From: a virus
Lineage: Duplodnaviria; Heunggongvirae; Uroviricota; Caudoviricetes
Reading direction: 5' to 3' (one strand)
Virus record (IMG/VR): IMGVR_UViG_3300048850_000064
Span: 103,743 to 115,768 of that record
Length of the DNA: 12,026 nt
The notes under the pieces were generated by a model. It made no database searches. It was not told the origin of the DNA and saw only the letters and a program-made list of their open reading frames with translations. Shown piece by piece: positions 2,409-9,174 of the stretch (within the stretch, counting starts at the first letter, position 1; every line of letters begins with the position of its first letter). The position numbers were made by a program, and so were the translations under genes.

Positions 2409-2426
2409 TCAGTCATTACTGACTGA
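2409..2426. promoter_or_regulatory. Palindromic site 1: TCAGTCA-TTAC-TGACTGA
   Basis: Perfect 7-bp inverted repeat starting 14 nt after the scaffold stop; member of a 7-copy family. Confidence 0.8.
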
Positions 2427-2435
2427 ATTTTCTGC

Positions 2436-2465
2436 TTGCAGTGTGGATCGCCATCAAGGTAAGAT
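2436..2465 (+). promoter_or_regulatory. Putative sigma70-type promoter of the capsid gene (TTGCAG-N18-TAAGAT)
   Basis: -35-like TTGCAG 2436-2441 (preceded by C) and -10-like TAAGAT 2460-2465; same 18-bp geometry recurs at 7757-7786. Confidence 0.5.
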
Positions 2466-2493
2466 ATTGGTCAGTCACCAATGACTTTACCTT
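2457..2493 (+). repeat. 37-bp exact direct repeat, copy 1 (AGGTAAGATATTGGTCAGTCACCAATGACTTTACCTT)
   Basis: Identical to 7778-7814. Confidence 0.97.
2471..2488. promoter_or_regulatory. Palindromic site 2: TCAGTCA-CCAA-TGACTTT
   Basis: AGTCA-N4-TGACT core starting 6 nt after the putative -10, i.e. over the expected transcription start. Confidence 0.8.
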
Positions 2494-2530
2494 GATGGCG
2501 ATCTTTTCGCATTGCTAAGGAGAATTACCG

Positions 2531-3433
2531 ATGCCGCTGCTTATTACGGAAGCTGAAAAGCTGTCCCAGGAGGACATGGAGCGTGGCGTGATCGAAGAGA
2601 TCATCGAAAAGGATGAGCTCTTTGCTCTCGTGCCCTTTATGTCCGTCTCGGACAAAACCTACACCTATGTTCGCGAAGGCGACCTGCCGGACGTCGCGTT
2701 CCTTGATCCTTACGAGGATTTCGAAGAGAGCGCCGCGACCTTCGTGGAAGTCTCGAGCAAGCTCAAGGTGCTCGGCGGCGACCTGCTCATGGACAAGTTC
2801 ACGACCGCTACCCAGTCGTCCCTGAACGACCAGGTCGCGATCCAGATCCAGAAGAAGGCCAAGTCGATCAACCGCACCTTCCGCAATGCGATGGTGAACG
2901 GCGACACCGCGGTCAACCCGAAGTCCTTCGACGGCATCAAGAAGCTCACCCCGAGCTACCAGACGCTGGTTGCCGGCGCCAACGGCGCTGCCGTCAGCCC
3001 GGAAATGCTCGACGAGCTGCTCGACGCGGTCAAGCTCGGCGCAGACTGCCTGATGATGCGTCAGGGCACCTGGCGCGCGATCCGCTCCATCATGCGCTCC
3101 TTCGGTGGCAACACCGGCGACATGATCCAGATTCCGAACTTCGGACATCCGGTTCGCGCCTATGATGGCATCCCGGTCATCATCAACGACTACATGACGG
3201 CCGACGAAGTCCAGGGCACGGCGAACGAGACCGCCTCGATCTACGCGCTCCGCCTCAACGAGGCCGACGGCTTCCACGGCATCTACGGCGGTGGCCCGGC
3301 CGGCGTCCAGCTCGAGCACATCGGCACGTCCCACACCAAGGACGCCGACAAGTGGCGCGTCAAGTGGTATGCCGGCACGGCTCTGAAGGCGACCCACTCG
3401 GTTGCCCGTCTCAAGGGCGTGACCAACATTTAA
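2531..3433 (+). CDS. Major capsid protein (HK97 fold presumed)
   Basis: 300 aa; SD AAGGAG upstream; strongly biased codon usage; follows scaffold gene; C-terminal DADKWRVKWYAG...LKGVTNI resembles SSU5-type capsids (recalled). Confidence 0.9.
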   Translation: MPLLITEAEKLSQEDMERGVIEEIIEKDELFALVPFMSVSDKTYTYVREGDLPDVAFLDPYEDFEESAATFVEVSSKLKVLGGDLLMDKFTTATQSSLNDQVAIQIQKKAKSINRTFRNAMVNGDTAVNPKSFDGIKKLTPSYQTLVAGANGAAVSPEMLDELLDAVKLGADCLMMRQGTWRAIRSIMRSFGGNTGDMIQIPNFGHPVRAYDGIPVIINDYMTADEVQGTANETASIYALRLNEADGFHGIYGGGPAGVQLEHIGTSHTKDADKWRVKWYAGTALKATHSVARLKGVTNI

Positions 3434-3435
3434 TC

Positions 3436-3464
3436 TTGATAGTCAGTCACTACTGACTTAATAT
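3436..3464 (+). promoter_or_regulatory. Putative sigma70 promoter TTGATA-N17-TAATAT
   Basis: -35 at 3436-3441, -10 at 3459-3464, 17-bp spacer occupied by palindromic site 3. Confidence 0.6.
3443..3460. promoter_or_regulatory. Palindromic site 3: TCAGTCA-CTAC-TGACTTA
   Basis: AGTCA-N4-TGACT core starting 10 nt after the capsid stop. Confidence 0.8.
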
Positions 3465-3465
3465 G

Positions 3466-3498
3466 AGGGGCGGGTTTTTCCCGCCCCTTTTAGTTTTT
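3466..3498 (+). terminator. Intrinsic terminator after the capsid gene
   Basis: 9-bp stem AGGGGCGGG-TTTTT-CCCGCCCCT followed by TTTAGTTTTT. Confidence 0.85.
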
Positions 3499-3507
3499 GG
3501 CGAGAAT

Positions 3508-3762
3508 ATGAACGAAATCACGATCTACGGACAGGACCGCTGCGGCCATTGCGTCAGAGCAAAGGTGCATCTTGAGCGGGCTAATATTCCCTTCACCTAT
3601 CGCGACATCGCCGATCCGGCCGACAAGGCAGAAATGTTCCGGCGCAATCCGAAGGCAAAGACCGTTCCGCAGATCTTCATCGGGGAGCGGCTCATCGGCG
3701 GCGCTGATCAGCTTGTCGCGCTCCCTCTTTCCGAACTGCAACAGATGATCGGTGGAAAATGA
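3508..3762 (+). CDS. Glutaredoxin (GrxC/NrdH-like) with CGHC active site
   Basis: 84 aa from ATG 3508 (MNEITIYGQDRCGHCVRAK...TVPQIFIGERLIGGADQL): CxxC, cis-Pro TVP and GG motifs. The track's ATG 3463 lies in the -10/terminator region. Confidence 0.9.
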   Translation: MNEITIYGQDRCGHCVRAKVHLERANIPFTYRDIADPADKAEMFRRNPKAKTVPQIFIGERLIGGADQLVALPLSELQQMIGGK

Positions 3763-4928
3763 ACTATCTCAAGATCGTATCGAAGGGCTGGGCTGGCTAT
3801 TCCGGCAATCTCGGCAGTCTCATCTTCAAGGACGGCGTCTCGACCGAGCCCGTCTCCCAGCTCATCGGCGACCGGCTCGCAGCCGTTGCCCAGATGATCT
3901 GGGTCGATGCCGACGGCAACGAGATCGGCCCGACCGGCGTTGCTCACCGCCTGGCGACCGAAAGCAAGGGTCGCGCTCCGGTGACGGCCGCACTTGCCCG
4001 TCAGAGCGACACCGAAAAGAGCCGCGAACAGGCCTTCGATGCGGTGCGCAGCGAACAGGCGCCGACCCGCTTCTACACCCGCGAGGAGCTCGAGGAGGTC
4101 GGCGACAAGCACGGTATGAAGGGTCTGCGCGCGATCGCCGACAAGTGGGGCGTCAAGGAACGCTCGATGACGGCGCTGATGAACGAGCTGCTCAAGGTCC
4201 AGGCCGAGTTCCTGGAAAAGCGCAATCTCAAGCTCCAGCAGCACTCCGAAAAGACCGCGGCTGCGATCAAGGAGGCCGAGGAGGAAAAGAAGCGCCTGGC
4301 CGAAGAGACGCGCAAGGCTCAGGAAGAGGCTGACCGGCTTGCCGGCATTCTCGAGGGCACCGATGCGATCGCTTCAGTCTACACCTCCGGCGAGCTGATC
4401 ATCCCGGCCGCGGCGATCATCGAATCCGCCTGGAAGCGCTCGCTGATGACGGTCACCGGCTTCAACGCGCTCGACAAGGTCAAGCGTGACGAGAAGATCG
4501 TCGCCGAGCTCGAGGAGCTTGCCGCTCTTCACGGCGCACCGCTCGTCGCTCAGTCGATCGAAAAGACCGAAGCTCCGACCAGCAAGCCGGAACTGATTGT
4601 TGATGGCGTCATTCATGCGGATAAGCTCGTCGCCGACAAGATCGTGCCCGCCACCATCAACGCCGGTCTTATTCGCTCCTCGGATGGCAAGATGCAGGTC
4701 GATCTGACCAATAAGAGTATTGCCATCGATGCCGAGACGCTTCTCGGTTCCTCGGTCCTGGCTTCCACCTACGAGATCGGTGGCGAGACGGTGCAGCTTG
4801 GCGACATCGTCGCGGCCGCGCATGTCACCTTCGGCGGCACGGTCGCCGAGTGGAACGCTCTTGCCGATGACGACCGCGAGGCTCTCCTCCGGCTCGAGCT
4901 CGACAAGCGTCTCGCCGCTGCGGAGTAA
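3759..4928 (+). CDS. Multi-domain accessory protein (HeH/Rho-N-like helical domain, coiled coil, duplicated 50-aa module)
   Basis: 389 aa; ATGA overlap with the glutaredoxin stop; YTREELEEVGDKHGMKGLRAIADKWGVK resembles helix-extension-helix domains often encoded after capsid genes. Function unknown. Confidence 0.65.
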   Translation: MNYLKIVSKGWAGYSGNLGSLIFKDGVSTEPVSQLIGDRLAAVAQMIWVDADGNEIGPTGVAHRLATESKGRAPVTAALARQSDTEKSREQAFDAVRSEQAPTRFYTREELEEVGDKHGMKGLRAIADKWGVKERSMTALMNELLKVQAEFLEKRNLKLQQHSEKTAAAIKEAEEEKKRLAEETRKAQEEADRLAGILEGTDAIASVYTSGELIIPAAAIIESAWKRSLMTVTGFNALDKVKRDEKIVAELEELAALHGAPLVAQSIEKTEAPTSKPELIVDGVIHADKLVADKIVPATINAGLIRSSDGKMQVDLTNKSIAIDAETLLGSSVLASTYEIGGETVQLGDIVAAAHVTFGGTVAEWNALADDDREALLRLELDKRLAAAE

Positions 4929-4931
4929 GCG

Positions 4932-5810
4932 ATGAACCTCTACCCCGACAATTACGACGTCACCGTCACCATTGCCTTCACCGACCTCAATGGCGCGCCT
5001 ATCACGCCGAGCGCGGTAAAGGCCGTTCTCTCCGATGGCGACGACCAGGTCGTGAACGACTTCGGCGCGATCACCTTCGATCCGGCAGAGGCCGGCGTCG
5101 AGATCACGATCCCGGCCGAATTCAACCAGCTCGGGGCAGGGGAGCTTTCCGACGCGCGCATCCTGCGCGTGACCCTTGAGACGGCCGCCGGCGAGATCCG
5201 GCGTTCGTCCTCCTACATCATCCAGGGCGAGCGCCGCCTGGAGATCATGACCAATTCCTTCGTCTCGATCGAATCGGCCGCGATCATCGCCCGCGACATT
5301 CCCGGCCTTTCCGGCTGGTCGAGCGCCTCCGACGACGAGCGCTATGCCGCGCTGATCTCCGCCTATCACCGGCTCACCCGCATCCCGATGAAGTTCTATC
5401 CGGAAGCCGAGGGTCCGATCGAGACGCGCGAGAACTGGGGCTATGGCAACGACCACAATGCCGAGCCGTTCAAGCGCCCCTATCACTGGACCAAGGATCT
5501 CGTCGGCAGCTACGGCCGCGCCGAGACGATCATCCCGGCCTCTGCCTGGCCGGTCGTCACCGAGACCGAGTTCATGGGCTGGCCGGCGCATTTCCGCAAG
5601 GCCGTGCGCTTCGCCCAGGTGGCCGAGGCAGGCGAACTGCTCGAGGATGACGTCGTCACCAGGAAGCATCGCCAGGGCATCATCTCCGAGACCGTCGGCG
5701 AAAGCTCGGTCATGCTGCGCGGCGGGCGCCTCGATCTCGGCATCAGCCGGCGCGCCCTCGAATATCTGACCGGCTACGTCTATTACAACTGGCGGGTAAG
5801 CCGCGCATGA
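4932..5810 (+). CDS. Head-tail adaptor / head completion protein (putative)
   Basis: 292 aa; NSFVSIESA...WSSASDDERYAALISAYHRL and IISETVGESSVM motifs typical of adaptor proteins; position after capsid region. Confidence 0.65.
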   Translation: MNLYPDNYDVTVTIAFTDLNGAPITPSAVKAVLSDGDDQVVNDFGAITFDPAEAGVEITIPAEFNQLGAGELSDARILRVTLETAAGEIRRSSSYIIQGERRLEIMTNSFVSIESAAIIARDIPGLSGWSSASDDERYAALISAYHRLTRIPMKFYPEAEGPIETRENWGYGNDHNAEPFKRPYHWTKDLVGSYGRAETIIPASAWPVVTETEFMGWPAHFRKAVRFAQVAEAGELLEDDVVTRKHRQGIISETVGESSVMLRGGRLDLGISRRALEYLTGYVYYNWRVSRA

Positions 5811-6580
5811 TCCTGCAGCGACTGAGCCATGAGGCCGAGACTGCGGCAATGCGTTACGGCCTGCTCACCGAAGCCTGGCGCTCGATCTTTCACCAGGCGC
5901 TGAACGCCTCGAACTTCGGCTATCCGGCCGTCACCGACAAGGCGATCGGCGAAGCTTTCCGGGTCGCCGAGACCTATCTTTCCGAAGAGCGGCATGCGGC
6001 CGAGCGGACGCTGAGTGAAATCGCTACAGAAGCGCGCACAGTGACGCTTGCAGATTTGCAGAGCATCGACGCGTCAGAGATGACGGAGCGAGCCCTCGAG
6101 CATCTGAGCGTGACCCGCAGCTATCTCGTAGACGAACTGATTGCGCAGTGTCATCGCGATATCGCGCTGATGCGTCAGACGATGCAGCGGGTGTCGCTCG
6201 AGGTCTCGATCTCCTCGCGCAGTCGCGGCATTTCCGAACGCACCGCGCTCGTCGAATACCGCATCGGCAACCAGGCCGACCTGCAGTTCATCTTCCACGA
6301 CCGGCACGCCCGCAAGTGGGCCTCGAAGAAGTTCGTGCGCGCCCTTTGGCGCCATACGCTGCTCTCGACCTATAACGAGTCGGTTCTCTTCACGCTCGCC
6401 GATCACGGCCTGGCCCGCGCCCGGGTGGCGCATGAGGATCATGGCGCTGCCTCGCACGGCATGATCGTCGCGATCGGCTCGAACAGCGAGTTTCCGACCT
6501 ATTCCGAGATCCGGAACGAGGTCTTCCACCCGAACGCCAATGCGGTCCTGGAAATGGAGAAGCCCGATGTTCACGCCTAA
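5807..6580 (+). CDS. Putative minor capsid / head morphogenesis protein
   Basis: 257 aa; ATGA-coupled to the upstream gene; FHDRHARKWASKKFVR and C-terminal FHPNA resemble minor capsid protein (SPP1 gp7/Mu F-like) motifs. Confidence 0.5.
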   Translation: MILQRLSHEAETAAMRYGLLTEAWRSIFHQALNASNFGYPAVTDKAIGEAFRVAETYLSEERHAAERTLSEIATEARTVTLADLQSIDASEMTERALEHLSVTRSYLVDELIAQCHRDIALMRQTMQRVSLEVSISSRSRGISERTALVEYRIGNQADLQFIFHDRHARKWASKKFVRALWRHTLLSTYNESVLFTLADHGLARARVAHEDHGAASHGMIVAIGSNSEFPTYSEIRNEVFHPNANAVLEMEKPDVHA

Positions 6581-6905
6581 CCGCTCGGCGCTTTTGCTGA
6601 AGCGCACCGGCCGCGACAAGCATGCCCGCGAGATCTTCGCGCCGGCCAGCGACGTCCGCATCGCCATCGTGCGCCGCATCACCCGCATCGGCAAGACGAC
6701 GGTGCGCCAGGATTCGTCCGCCTCCCGCGGCGCTGCCGAGGAGACGCTCGCCGACATCAAGATCCTGATCAAGCCGACCGCGATCGCCAAGGACGACCGC
6801 ATGATCATCGACGGCGACACGTTCCGGGTCGTCGAGGTGCATCCGCGCTACACCGTCTATGGCGGGCTCGATCACTACGAGGTCGATCTGGGGATCGTCG
6901 TATGA
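6567..6905 (+). CDS. Head closure / head-tail joining protein (putative)
   Basis: 112 aa from ATG 6567 with GGAG SD at 6556-6559; beta-rich C-terminus IIDGDTFRVVEVHP...HYEVDL typical of stopper proteins. Confidence 0.6.
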   Translation: MFTPNRSALLLKRTGRDKHAREIFAPASDVRIAIVRRITRIGKTTVRQDSSASRGAAEETLADIKILIKPTAIAKDDRMIIDGDTFRVVEVHPRYTVYGGLDHYEVDLGIVV

Positions 6906-7336
6906 TCAAGCTGCGCGCCCATAATGTCGGCAAGGTCGTCATCGAGCTTGGTCACTTGGGCGAGCGCGTCGTCGACAATGCCCGCAAGACCATGCACGCC
7001 GCGGCCAAGCGCATCGAGAACAAGGCCAAGCTGCAGGCGCCGGTCGACGAGCACAATCTCGAGGAGTCGATCCATATCGAGCGCTACACGGTCGAACGCG
7101 GCCGCCTGGCGCTCGAGGTCGTCGCCGGCGGAATGGTCGACGGCATCAATGTCGACGACTACGCCGCCTACATGCACGAGGGCGATTACAATCTCGGGCC
7201 GAAATCGGTCGCCAAGCAGAATGCCAACCCCGACGTCGTCGTCGGCCGCAAGTTCCTGGAGCGCGCCCGGGACGAAGAGGAAGAGACCCTCGACGAGAAG
7301 ATGATCCACGCACTGAGAAGGATCCTGCCAAAATGA
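6902..7336 (+). CDS. HK97 gp10-like neck/tail-component protein
   Basis: 144 aa; AKLQAPVDEHNLEESI, YAAYMHEG and GRKFLERA motifs; ATGA coupling at both ends. Confidence 0.75.
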   Translation: MIKLRAHNVGKVVIELGHLGERVVDNARKTMHAAAKRIENKAKLQAPVDEHNLEESIHIERYTVERGRLALEVVAGGMVDGINVDDYAAYMHEGDYNLGPKSVAKQNANPDVVVGRKFLERARDEEEETLDEKMIHALRRILPK

Positions 7337-7743
7337 TCTGGGATATCATCGAGCAGAAGCTCGCTGCGGCCGAAATTGCCTCCGAGGCGGAGGGCACGCT
7401 GTTCCTCGACGAAATGCCGGCCGACGTGCGTGTCGGCGTCCTCCTGAAGTCGCCGCTGACCGGCATCCGCTTCGATCCACACATGCCCGGCTATCACAAG
7501 CCGCGCCTGCAGGTGATCGTGCGCCATACCGATCCGGTCGAAGGCGCTGCGATGGCCGCGGCCGTCATGCGGGCGCTGATCATTCCGGGTGTCGAGAACT
7601 ATCCGGCCACCGTCGAGCGCGGCGCCGTGCAGCTCAATCTGTTCTATCCGGATGCATTGCCGATCCGTTATCCAAGACTTGACGGCGACACGATCGAGTG
7701 GAGCTGCAATTTCAATACGTCCTTTTCGATACAGCCGCAGTAA
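7333..7743 (+). CDS. Tail terminator / tail completion protein (putative)
   Basis: 136 aa directly before the tail tube gene; LFLDEMPADVRVGVLL...LQVIVR pattern typical of tail terminators. Confidence 0.65.
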   Translation: MIWDIIEQKLAAAEIASEAEGTLFLDEMPADVRVGVLLKSPLTGIRFDPHMPGYHKPRLQVIVRHTDPVEGAAMAAAVMRALIIPGVENYPATVERGAVQLNLFYPDALPIRYPRLDGDTIEWSCNFNTSFSIQPQ

Positions 7744-7759
7744 AGTCATTACTGACTTG
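7742..7759. promoter_or_regulatory. Palindromic site 4: AAAGTCA-TTAC-TGACTTG
   Basis: Overlaps the TAA of the upstream gene and the putative -35; same TTAC spacer as site 1. Confidence 0.8.
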
Positions 7760-7786
7760 CTTCAAGGCTTCCGTTCGAGGTAAGAT
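7757..7786 (+). promoter_or_regulatory. Putative sigma70-type promoter of the tail tube gene (TTGCTT-N18-TAAGAT)
   Basis: Same CTTGC...N18...TAAGAT geometry as 2436-2465 despite a different spacer sequence. Confidence 0.5.
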
Positions 7787-7814
7787 ATTGGTCAGTCACC
7801 AATGACTTTACCTT
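7778..7814 (+). repeat. 37-bp exact direct repeat, copy 2
   Basis: Identical to 2457-2493; flanked by a different outer stem CTTCCGT (7768-7774) / ACGGGAG (7816-7822). Confidence 0.97.
7792..7809. promoter_or_regulatory. Palindromic site 5: TCAGTCA-CCAA-TGACTTT
   Basis: Identical to site 2; starts 6 nt after the putative -10. Confidence 0.8.
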
Positions 7815-7830
7815 CACGGGAGTAACAATC

Positions 7831-8346
7831 ATGCCTTCGAGCACCGAAAACGTTAAGCTCGGCGTCTGCACCGTTCTGTTCAACGAGGTCGACCTCGGCT
7901 TCACGAAGGGCGGTGTCGAAGTCGAAGTTGCCACCAACACCCACGAAGTCACCGTCGACCAGCTCGGCGAAACTCCGATCGACGAAATCATCACCGGCCG
8001 CACGGTCACGGTGACGGTTCCGCTCGCCGAAACGACCCTCGAGAACCTGGTCAAGATCATGCCGGGCGCGACGCTCGTCACCGACGGCACGACCCCGACC
8101 AAGAAGAAGGTCGCTGTCTCGACCGGCGTGTCGCTGTCGCTGCTCGACCTCGCCCAGAAGCTGGTGCTGCGCCCGAAGGGCACGACCGGCGCCGAGGACT
8201 TCACCGTCCTCAAGGCAATGACCGCCGGCGCGATCTCGTTTGCCTACAACACGGACACCGAGCGTGTCTTCAATGTGACGTTCAAGGGTTACGCCGACGC
8301 AGCCGGCAACCTGTTCTCCGTCGGCGACGACACCGCAGTTGCGTAA
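7831..8346 (+). CDS. Major tail (tube) protein
   Basis: 171 aa, T/V-rich beta protein (DLGFTKGGVEVEV, VTVTVPLAE, ERVFNVTFKGY); SD GGGAG 7818-7822; precedes chaperone and tape measure genes. Confidence 0.88.
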   Translation: MPSSTENVKLGVCTVLFNEVDLGFTKGGVEVEVATNTHEVTVDQLGETPIDEIITGRTVTVTVPLAETTLENLVKIMPGATLVTDGTTPTKKKVAVSTGVSLSLLDLAQKLVLRPKGTTGAEDFTVLKAMTAGAISFAYNTDTERVFNVTFKGYADAAGNLFSVGDDTAVA

Positions 8347-8356
8347 GGTCGGATAA

Positions 8357-8374
8357 TCAGTCATAAATGACTGA
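8357..8374. promoter_or_regulatory. Palindromic site 6: TCAGTCA-TAAA-TGACTGA
   Basis: Perfect inverted repeat extending to 8 bp (8356-8375), starting 11 nt after the tail tube stop. Confidence 0.8.
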
Positions 8375-8409
8375 TCGCTCTGGAAACAGGGCGGTCAGTC
8401 TTTTTGTTT
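8369..8409 (+). terminator. Intrinsic terminator after the tail tube gene
   Basis: 14-bp stem GACTGATCGCTCTG-GAAA-CAGGGCGGTCAGTC (two G-U pairs) followed by TTTTTGTTT. Confidence 0.85.
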
Positions 8410-8430
8410 GGACAAAGGAAATAGCACCGT

Positions 8431-8808
8431 ATGACCACCAAGTTCCTCGATCTCGATGCAGTCTCCTCCGATGCCGAGTTCTCGCTGAAGCTGAACGGCA
8501 AGGAGCACGCGCTCAGTGAACCGAGCGTCGATACCTTCATCACCAATATGCGTGAGCTGGAAACCCTGTCTCTGAACGCCTCGCCGCGCGAAGAGATCGA
8601 GATGTCCATCCGCATGATCCAGCGCTCGTTCCCGACCATTCCGGAAACCGAGCTGCGCGCGCTGAAGCTCACCCAGTTGAAGGCGATCGGCGACTTCGCC
8701 CGCCAGGCTTCCGGCCAGGATGCGAAGTCCGAGATCGCCTCTGACGGCGCTGAAGCGGGCGAGGGGGCTGCCGAGGGCGCCGAGGGAAACGTAGTCGCGG
8801 CGAGCTGA
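8431..8808 (+). CDS. Tail assembly chaperone (gpG-like)
   Basis: 125 aa between tube and tape measure genes; slippery heptamer near its 3' end. Confidence 0.8.
   Translation: MTTKFLDLDAVSSDAEFSLKLNGKEHALSEPSVDTFITNMRELETLSLNASPREEIEMSIRMIQRSFPTIPETELRALKLTQLKAIGDFARQASGQDAKSEIASDGAEAGEGAAEGAEGNVVAAS
8784..8790 (+). other. Programmed -1 ribosomal frameshift site G-GGA-AAC
   Basis: In-frame X XXY YYZ heptamer; the -1 frame is open from here to TGA 9168-9170. Confidence 0.85.
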
Positions 8809-9170
8809 AGTCGATCGACTTCGGTCTTCTGTTCGCCCGCATAGTCAAGCACTTCGGCTTTCGCCACGAGGATGTCCTGGCGATGCCGATCAAGCGGTTC
8901 TGGTTCTACCACAAGCAGGTCGACCGGCTCGCCGCTGAAGAAGATCTGCGAATGCTCAATCTGCTTGCCGCCGTGACCTCGAGCGAGGCCTACGGCAATA
9001 CGGTCGAGAAGCTTCGCAGGAGCATGGGCGAGATCTACGTGATGATGCCGGTCCAGAACACGCTGGTCGTGGTCGACGGCAAGGTCGAGGAGCTCGATCC
9101 GGAATACGACAGGGGTGCTCTGCTCGCGCTCAAGCGACATTGCACGCGCAAGGTGGAAAGTCAGGAGTGA
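8790..9170 (+). CDS. C-terminal part of the gpGT-like frameshift fusion (join 8431-8790, 8790-9170; about 246 aa)
   Basis: -1 frame reads RSRGELKSIDFGLLFARIVKHFGFRHEDVLAMPIKRFWFY..., continuous with track ORF 8883-9170. Confidence 0.78.
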   Translation, partial: RSRGELKSIDFGLLFARIVKHFGFRHEDVLAMPIKRFWFYHKQVDRLAAEEDLRMLNLLAAVTSSEAYGNTVEKLRRSMGEIYVMMPVQNTLVVVDGKVEELDPEYDRGALLALKRHCTRKVESQE

Positions 9171-9174
9171 CTGA
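9157..9174. promoter_or_regulatory. Palindromic site 7: AAAGTCA-GGAG-TGACTGA
   Basis: Spacer is the tape-measure SD (GGAG 9164-9167); right arm contains the GT stop codon TGA 9168-9170. Confidence 0.75.

Follow-up and report, generated by a model that had tools for sequence, protein, structure and literature searches.

Palindromes dispersed over the gene junctions of a Rhizobium-type phage genome: a putative operator, mainly for lytic repression

The DNA considered here is a window of 12,026 nt, the final 12 kb (positions 103,743 to 115,768) of a 115,768-bp phage record in IMG/VR, IMGVR_UViG_3300048850_000064, which has direct terminal repeats and 61% GC. We call this element the window phage; positions are those of the window unless they are given as genome positions. 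Among its genes are those for the scaffold, capsid and major tail proteins, two tail-chaperone open reading frames (ORFs) and the tape-measure protein, and the junctions of these genes carry the palindrome AGTCA-N4-TGACT. An exact search finds seven copies, all seven of them at gene junctions (Table 1). The mean expected by chance is 0.01, and none of 200 dinucleotide shuffles reached seven. There are no one-mismatch copies in the window, and two-mismatch matches number six (one of them a register shift of the site at 3445) against 2.75 by chance. The palindrome is a real, functional DNA motif. A preliminary description, made from the letters of the window, had reported seven palindromes at junctions and had judged them far beyond chance, and both statements are borne out. 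It named the same sites but set each start 2 nt too low, although 2409-2426 does fit an 18-bp extended palindrome, TCAGTCATTACTGACTGA.

Site numbers in the genome and half-sites in its relatives

No close relative of the window phage was found among GenBank phages by megablast, which returned matches of 77–79% in the portal and capsid genes only. Its distant relatives are the Rhizobium phages RHEph10, RHph_Y2_11 (Y2_11 below) and B1VFA, whose proteins are 35–80% identical to those of the window phage and whose gene order is conserved. Phages of the RHEph10 type and the Sinorhizobium plasmid pLM21S1 have been described as putative phage-plasmids with repC and parAB (PMC12509600, PMC4447125, PMC7969092). 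The relatives do carry repC and parA/parB, and pLM21S1 is a resident plasmid; by kinship, the window phage itself may be temperate.

The preliminary description had taken the palindromes for a regulon of the virion operon. This is not the case, as 29 exact copies are spread over the whole phage genome, where 0.05 are expected, and there are 29 one-mismatch windows (about 20 distinct sites) against 1.9 expected, nearly all of them intergenic. On a crude gene map based on GC3 (GC at third codon positions), 24 of the 29 exact sites are fully intergenic (binomial P ~7e-13), and the remaining five lie at or near gene ends, save the one at genome position 56650, which is near a gene start. The aligned genome sites give the consensus tagTC-AGTCA-TTAA-TGACT-GActa, that is, a palindrome of 14–22 bp built of tandem AGTC units. 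Fixed arms around varied spacers had been read as typical of a dimeric DNA-binding protein; the symmetric fixed arms do fit such a protein, but the spacer is not free, T-T-A-A/C being favoured genome-wide. One exact operator, at genome position 91529, lies about 580 nt upstream of a low-GC island (genome 89900-91300, 43–49% GC) with two minus-strand ORFs of 196 and 59 aa that the GC3-based gene finder missed; Pfam and PHROG scans returned nothing usable for either protein.

The motif is not equally frequent in host-type DNA. In 61 Hyphomicrobiales genomes, which amount to about 242 Mb, there are 43 sites. The phage, at 250 per Mb, exceeds this density of 0.18 per Mb about 1400-fold; the sample was drawn from the order of the host of the one bacterial relative, and the true phage host may differ. 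That relative, the only one returned by a capsid-protein scan of bacterial contigs, is in Ancylobacter rudongensis (62% identity). Since the 4.5-Mb genome of this bacterium has no exact AGTCA-N4-TGACT, it was used only as the centre of the background sample.

When palindromes were counted de novo in nine genomes (the window phage and eight relatives, five of which we designate G001 to G005), about 20–33 copies were found in each relative, with half-sites that differ by lineage. AGTCA-N4-TGACT occurs 29 times in the window phage and 24 times in G005; Y2_11, RHEph10, G001 and G002 have ARTCA-N4-TGAYT, 19–27 copies each; B1VFA (31) and G003 (28) have AGTAA-N4-TTACT; and G004 has GTCAGT-N4-ACTGAC. 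G005 is a 109.7-kb IMG/VR record of 43% GC, with direct terminal repeats and the same core genes, whose host is presumably very different; the spacer of its 24 copies is mostly GTAC.

The positions of these sites are conserved. The junction comparison leaves out G001 and G002, where the hits were on the minus strand, and uses RHEph10 only where its record covers the junction. Nearly all window junctions carry the lineage's own version of the palindrome in six relatives and, where covered, in RHEph10. In most of the relatives compared, two sites flank the capsid promoter and the tail promoter likewise has two. The site after the tail gene is present in Y2_11, RHEph10, G004 and G005 and absent from B1VFA and G003, and the site before the tape-measure gene is present in Y2_11, RHEph10, B1VFA, G003 and G004, that is, in all compared but G005. 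Position is thus kept while the half-site changes in concert, which argues for a sequence-specific reader encoded by the element itself. A host factor is unlikely because the motif differs among phages of the same host genus. The consensus sites of IHF, FixK/CRP, LexA and CtrA do not fit the palindrome.

Position relative to promoters at the virion-gene junctions

The operators stand in three geometries with respect to predicted promoters. In one, the operator lies within the 17-nt spacer of a near-consensus TTGATA/TTGCTA...TAnnnT promoter; there are five such sites in the genome, one of them in the window. In another, it begins 1–12 nt past a -10 box, which is TAAGAT at both O2 sites, GATAAT at 8352 and GCTATAA elsewhere. 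In the remaining one, it lies at or upstream of the -35, as at 2411 (11 nt before TTGCAG) and 7744 (a 1-nt overlap with TTGCTT). The overlap with a promoter spacer, with start regions and with a -35 that had been proposed for the window is supported (the spacer at 3436-3464, the O2 sites and 7744, respectively). All these promoters are predictions from sequence, with a weak hint from RNA contigs, and not mapped starts.

A second promoter type, TCCC-N14-GCTATAA, abounds in B1VFA, and some ten of its copies there have the palindrome immediately behind them. Promoters of the form TCCC-N10-15-GCTATAA (genome 45608, 67183 and 28300-28330; many in B1VFA) have no TTGACA-like -35 and precede many small, early-looking genes, usually with the palindrome directly after them. 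The reader of these promoters may be a sigma-70-like protein that the phage itself encodes (genome 33271-33915; Sigma70_r2, E 1e-4). Because the palindrome varies in position, accompanies several promoter types and occurs in both orientations, it is better regarded as an operator than as a promoter element.

Table 1. Palindromes, predicted promoters and neighbouring features at the capsid, tail and chaperone/tape-measure junctions (window positions)
Feature	Position	Strand	Remarks
Putative operator O1 of capsid promoter (AGTCATTACTGACT)	2411-2424 (extended 2409-2426)		15 nt past scaffold stop; 11 nt upstream of -35; orthologous lineage-specific site in Y2_11, B1VFA, G003, G004
Predicted capsid promoter: TTGCAG (2436-2441), 18-nt spacer, TAAGAT (2460-2465)	2436-2465	+	From sequence; same geometry in relatives
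Long hairpin, then TTTT	2445-2504	+	19-pair outer stem (17-bp perfect inverted repeat); -37.4 kcal/mol, z -8.4
Promoter/operator cassette, 37 nt, with -10, O2 and 3' stem arm	2457-2493	+	Identical to 7778-7814
Putative operator O2 of capsid promoter (AGTCACCAATGACT)	2473-2486		7 nt past -10, over expected start region; 44 nt ahead of capsid ATG
Capsid ATG	2531	+	ORF
Predicted sigma-70-like promoter TTGATA-17-TAATAT, with putative operator (AGTCACTACTGACT, 3445-3458) in spacer	3436-3464	+	9/12 consensus matches; found independently by promoter scan; operator 11 nt past capsid stop
Intrinsic terminator after capsid gene	3465-3497	+	Directly past -10 of TTGATA-17-TAATAT; -28.7 kcal/mol (3441-3495); strong; also delimited as 3465-3489
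Putative operator O1 of major-tail promoter (AGTCATTACTGACT)	7744-7757		Adjoins TAA at 7741-7743; last T is first base of -35 TTGCTT
Predicted major-tail promoter: TTGCTT (7757-7762), 18-nt spacer, TAAGAT (7781-7786)	7757-7786	+	From sequence
Putative operator O2 of major-tail promoter (AGTCACCAATGACT)	7794-7807		Within duplicated 37-nt cassette; 23 nt ahead of major-tail ATG
Major-tail ATG	7831	+	ORF
Putative operator after major-tail gene (AGTCATAAATGACT)	8359-8372		12 nt past major-tail stop; 1 nt past GATAAT (8352-8357); right arm is start of terminator stem
Intrinsic terminator after major-tail gene	8369-8405	+	14-pair stem; -26.7 kcal/mol (8355-8408), z -7.6
Putative operator at chaperone/tape-measure junction (AGTCAGGAGTGACT)	9159-9172		Spans chaperone-ORF TGA (9168-9170, in right arm), 5 nt ahead of tape-measure ATG (9178); spacer holds Shine-Dalgarno AGGAG

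The arrangement after the capsid gene, in which the promoter with the operator in its spacer runs directly into the capsid terminator, is found in 7/7 relatives compared, including G005 with its 43% GC. A start about 7 nt past the TAATAT -10 would fall in the 5' arm of that terminator; transcripts of this restart promoter would therefore escape the terminator, while transcripts from upstream would stop there.

The long hairpin ahead of the capsid gene encloses both the capsid -10 and O2. Only transcripts that read through from upstream could fold into it, and for such RNA of the portal and scaffold genes it may serve as a terminator or a processing site. In Y2_11 and B1VFA, inverted repeats of other sequence flank O2 at this position. 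Both copies of the 37-nt cassette interrupt the DNA contigs of run X1. A related isolate (run X3) has 88 other letters in place of the 86-nt tail promoter region, between flanking genes that still have at least 90% identity.

Some RNA sequence is at hand from a soil metatranscriptome (run X2), whose difference-free contigs cover 2491-3474 and 7812-8473, with none over the scaffold gene (1605-2406). The first contig ends at 3474 in adapter sequence, at the capsid terminator. As a weak hint, the contigs fit transcription of the capsid and tail genes as two units, each with its start at or just past O2. Contigs cannot prove starts or ends, the equal offset in identical cassettes may reflect sequence-dependent coverage, and the uncovered parts are not evidence.

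Near the end of the first tail-chaperone ORF (8431-8808; the second is 8883-9170) there is a slippery heptamer, GGGAAAC, at 8784-8790, which is conserved as GGGAAAC or GGGAAAG in all relatives compared and fits the usual -1 frameshift that makes a longer chaperone. The operator at 9159 sits in the 3' end of the extension of this longer chaperone.

A candidate regulator and the proposed mode of action

As judged from the DNA, the palindrome is very probably a protein-binding operator, and we think it reasonably probable that its reader is a regulator encoded by this phage-plasmid of the RHEph10/pLM21S1 type and acting mainly as a repressor of lytic promoters. The preliminary description had held that the factor was not identifiable; this is true of the window, but the genome encodes a conserved candidate. 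Outside the window, beside the repC region (genome 28393-28827), there is a gene for a 144-aa Xre-type helix-turn-helix (HTH) protein that is conserved in all nine genomes. Of about 30 proteins, mostly small and conserved, that were scanned with Pfam and PHROG, most gave no match; apart from the 144-aa protein, none encoded by genes conserved as far as G005 is a clear match to a transcription regulator. Its PHROG matches are phrog_8 (E 2e-6), phrog_2967 and phrog_638 'transcriptional regulator' (E 2e-6 to 7e-4 overall), its Pfam match to HTH_3 is weak (E 0.05, under the cut-off), and the top sequence hit in the PDB is 8bny_A, 'Immunity repressor protein' (E 1e-4), which is Rco of plasmid pLS20 (PMC9986798). 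A homodimer model gives an ipSAE of 0.54 against 0.10 for the best control, with contact agreement of at least 76% and pLDDT of at least 77; the ipSAE mark is reached by 20/30 proteins solved as pairs and by 1/23 solved as single chains. The modelled interface is symmetric, comprises the C-terminal residues 92-139 and leaves the HTH free. The model thus supports pairing of the protein without showing it.

A regulator gene with the motif upstream had been suggested as something to look for. The HTH gene does have an upstream site, about 137–156 nt away in 8/8 Rhizobium-type genomes, but with one mismatch rather than exact. A second site lies 56–111 nt downstream of the gene in 7/8 of these genomes and is exact in G001 and G002; in G005, two sites precede the gene (by 114 and 185 nt) and no site follows it. 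The proximal TCCC...GCTATA promoter of the HTH gene is without the start-region operator that many such promoters carry. One would expect such a pattern of a self-regulating repressor gene, active when the other genes are silent. Just past the terminator of the HTH gene, at genome 28883-28900, there is a spacing variant, AGTCA-GTAATTAC-TGACT, a perfect 18-bp palindrome whose half-sites are 8 rather than 4 bp apart. HTH sequences group as the motif classes do: the ARTCA genomes have one HTH sequence in common, the AGTAA genomes another, and L/I-S-M recurs in the recognition helices of all three GTCA-type genomes. Taken together, the 144-aa protein is a plausible but tentative choice for the factor, one that we would put somewhat short of probable.

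We propose that a dimer, for which this 144-aa protein is the likeliest candidate, would bind with one HTH per half-site, the half-site centres being 9 bp apart. Because the sites fall between the -35 and the -10, on the start region or next to the -35, their occupancy at about 30–50 places at once would exclude or block the host RNA polymerase. The virion, replication and other lytic genes would thereby be kept silent while the element lives as a plasmid prophage. Each of the strong capsid and major-tail promoters would have two operators around it, and the restart promoter that follows the capsid gene would have one in its interior; at the tail-gene end and ahead of the tape-measure gene, the junction sites may be roadblocks or operators of weak promoters. 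The half-site is re-coded per lineage (AGTCA, ARTCA, AGTAA, GTCAGT), as would be expected of diverging immunity specificities.

It is tempting to go further and to imagine a family-wide 'immunity code' of tandem 4-mers (AGTC-AGTC-A, AGTA-AGTA-A, AATC-AATC-A), in which one base of the unit is changed per lineage at all of the roughly 30–50 sites together with the repressor. Co-occurring Rhizobium phage-plasmids would then form heteroimmune groups; the site pairs that bracket the capsid and tail genes, on the promoter and the terminator side, would make these insulated, separately silenced cassettes; and the same protein might act positively at the sites adjacent to a -35. We put this forward as speculation that is more probably wrong than right by a wide measure.

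Several points weigh against the proposal of a repressor or against this protein as its agent. That repression is the main role seems to us fairly probable, but geometry is the one ground on which we infer repression rather than activation, and the sites by the -35 of the capsid and tail promoters occupy positions where activators also bind. The late promoters of phage P1 carry the palindrome of an activator, Lpa, in the spacer region, so location in a spacer is by itself no proof of repression. The agreement between HTH groups and motif classes does not single out the 144-aa protein because it follows phylogeny. The recognition helices of the window phage (AQPQALSMMK) and G005 (KRPNVLSMIK) are only partly alike despite the same DNA core, and there are other conserved DNA-binding candidates, namely two ParB_N proteins, a sigma-like protein and a TerS-like HTH protein. 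The crudeness of the gene map limits the counts of intergenic placement. Cooperative looping is not indicated either, the O1-O2 distances at double sites (62, 50, 48, 51 and 58 bp) not being helix-phased.

Alternatives and comparison with known systems

The preliminary description had also allowed for a role at the RNA level, as a hairpin, antitermination or processing signal. More broadly, the palindromes might act as hairpins of RNA or single-strand DNA, with termination, RNA processing, 5' stabilisation or antitermination as their function. Among the seven window sites, five are indeed at most 15 nt from a stop codon, isolated palindromes can fold (for example, -8.3 kcal/mol at 2405-2430), and the right arm at 8359 overlaps a terminator stem. 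What is conserved, however, is the sequence of the arms and not their pairing. The 20 sites of Y2_11 comprise 6 AATCA/TGATT, 12 hybrid AATCA/TGACT and 2 AGTCA/TGACT, as would fit an independent choice of A or G in each half-site, and the 12 hybrids would put an A.C mismatch in a hairpin. Nor is there a preference of orientation: upstream of plus-strand genes, the asymmetric spacers TTAC and GTAA occur five and three times, with one more GTAA in a minus-strand block. Sites in spacers or upstream of a -35 would lie outside the RNA of that promoter, and no U-tract belongs to the palindromes, the strong terminators nearby being separate. In minimum-energy folds of the RNA, ATTGGT pairs with ACCAAT at 2473 and 7794 instead of one palindrome arm with the other, the right arm at 8359 is taken up by the terminator stem, and the fold at 9159 does not surpass those of shuffles (z -0.95). 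Because the hybrids mispair, both orientations occur and the folds bypass the palindrome at three of seven sites, the RNA-level explanation is disfavoured, and we consider it very unlikely.

Other explanations retain DNA as the relevant molecule. The palindrome might be an activator or promoter-specificity site, at which a phage protein, possibly with a sigma-like factor, switches promoters on, as Lpa does in P1. The spacer palindromes beside a -10 resemble the late promoters of P1, the O1 sites adjoin the -35 of the capsid and tail promoters, and the capsid and tail RNA contigs start just past O2; the phage also encodes a divergent sigma-70-like protein, whose Sigma70_r2 match is below the Pfam cut-off and whose homologue in B1VFA is annotated as a sigma factor. 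However, many sites lie past the -10 on the start region, a place where binding obstructs rather than assists. Promoters of the spacer type are already near-consensus at the -35 and the -10, with 17 nt in between, the same site goes with at least three promoter types and with genes of all functional modules, and some sites, such as 9159, have no promoter-like element nearby. We therefore regard activation as an unlikely, though not an outlandish, alternative. It is improbable, too, that one of the two ParB_N proteins uses the sites for loading or binding, acting as a KorB-like global silencer and possibly as a partition protein. These two conserved proteins (genome 97399-98136 and 98302-98973) are encoded beside a parA-like operon, with an exact site at 97370 directly upstream of the first, and the ParB family includes a repressor, KorB of RK2, whose palindromic operators serve both close to promoters and at a distance (PMC11790492). 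Yet Pfam shows the N-terminal domain alone in both, with no HTH or other DNA-binding domain detected, such proteins are annotated as ParB-like nucleases in the relatives, and at 44–57% identity, they are more conserved than expected of a factor that re-codes its site between lineages. Finally, the repeats could be regulatory cassettes that move or recombine, as the promoter-stem-loop cassettes do in T4-type phages, and that spread without a dedicated binding protein. The identical 37-nt block with -10 and O2 at the capsid and tail promoters and the replacement of the tail promoter region in the isolate of run X3 would suit this idea, but most sites share the palindrome alone and not its flanks, and between lineages, whole sets of about 20–30 sites carry one and the same half-site change, for which something must read the sequence selectively; the idea is, in our opinion, very unlikely.

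A dispersed operator for a phage-encoded repressor thus remains the reading that we prefer. If it is confirmed, one small repressor and a short palindrome would explain the near-total lytic silence of the Rhizobium/Sinorhizobium phage-plasmids (RHEph10, pLM21S1, B1VFA), a group that is widespread and little studied. The lineage half-sites would predict mutual immunity, which is relevant to phage ecology in legume soils and to inoculant strains, and the pairs of repressor and operator would be orthogonal tools for alphaproteobacterial genetics. The palindrome also maps transcription units, namely the capsid and tail cassettes and the restart promoter set against a terminator.

The dispersed-repressor style of control is known from other elements, and for this phage family we found no description of it; the literature searched on RHEph10, pLM21S1, B1VFA and SSU5 mentions no palindromic operator of this sort, so that within this literature the motif is undescribed, as had been supposed. 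The analogy with the dispersed C1 operators of P1, which had been drawn for the window, is apt because the element belongs to a putative phage-plasmid family. P1 is a plasmid prophage in which one repressor serves many operators that overlap lytic promoters over a genome of about 100 kb; the window phage would share this design, with a candidate repressor. The operators of P1 are asymmetric 17-bp sequences bound by monomeric C1, and its virion genes are controlled indirectly, via the late activator Lpa. The sites of the window phage, in contrast, are palindromic (a dyad of 14–22 bp) and sit on the virion-gene promoters themselves, and its candidate repressor is of the Xre HTH type. No C1 homologue was named in the general Pfam and PHROG scans, which included no search aimed at C1. 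Mycobacteriophage L5 and the other Cluster A phages have 20–30 repressor sites genome-wide, including the virion operon, with a lineage consensus that tracks repressor and immunity; these stoperators are asymmetric 13-bp sequences, oriented with transcription and mostly off promoters, that block elongation (PMC6550527). The window phage resembles them in its many dispersed sites, some at virion-gene junctions, and in its lineage-specific consensus, whereas its sites are symmetric, occur in both orientations and are mostly on promoter cores. It belongs to neither kind of network because the sites of both are asymmetric and stoperators are oriented and mostly away from promoters.

KorB and its OB operators in the IncP plasmid RK2 offer another parallel, that of a plasmid-encoded global repressor acting from dispersed palindromic operators at varied promoter positions (PMC11790492), and ParB-family proteins are present here too. 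The ParB_N proteins of the window phage differ in that no HTH was detected in them and no evidence ties them to the motif. RK2 has a dozen OB sites, fewer than the sites of the window phage. By sequence, the nearest class of the candidate protein appears to be Xre/Cro-CI. Similarity to Rco itself is weak (E 1e-4) and confined to the HTH, and Rco loops one promoter region via two operators rather than occupying some 30–50 sites. Nevertheless, the candidate would share with Rco of pLS20 (PDB 8BNY, PMC9986798) an N-terminal Xre HTH and a C-terminal oligomerisation region, and with Xre/Cro-CI repressors the use of palindromic operators whose half-sites are about one helical turn apart.

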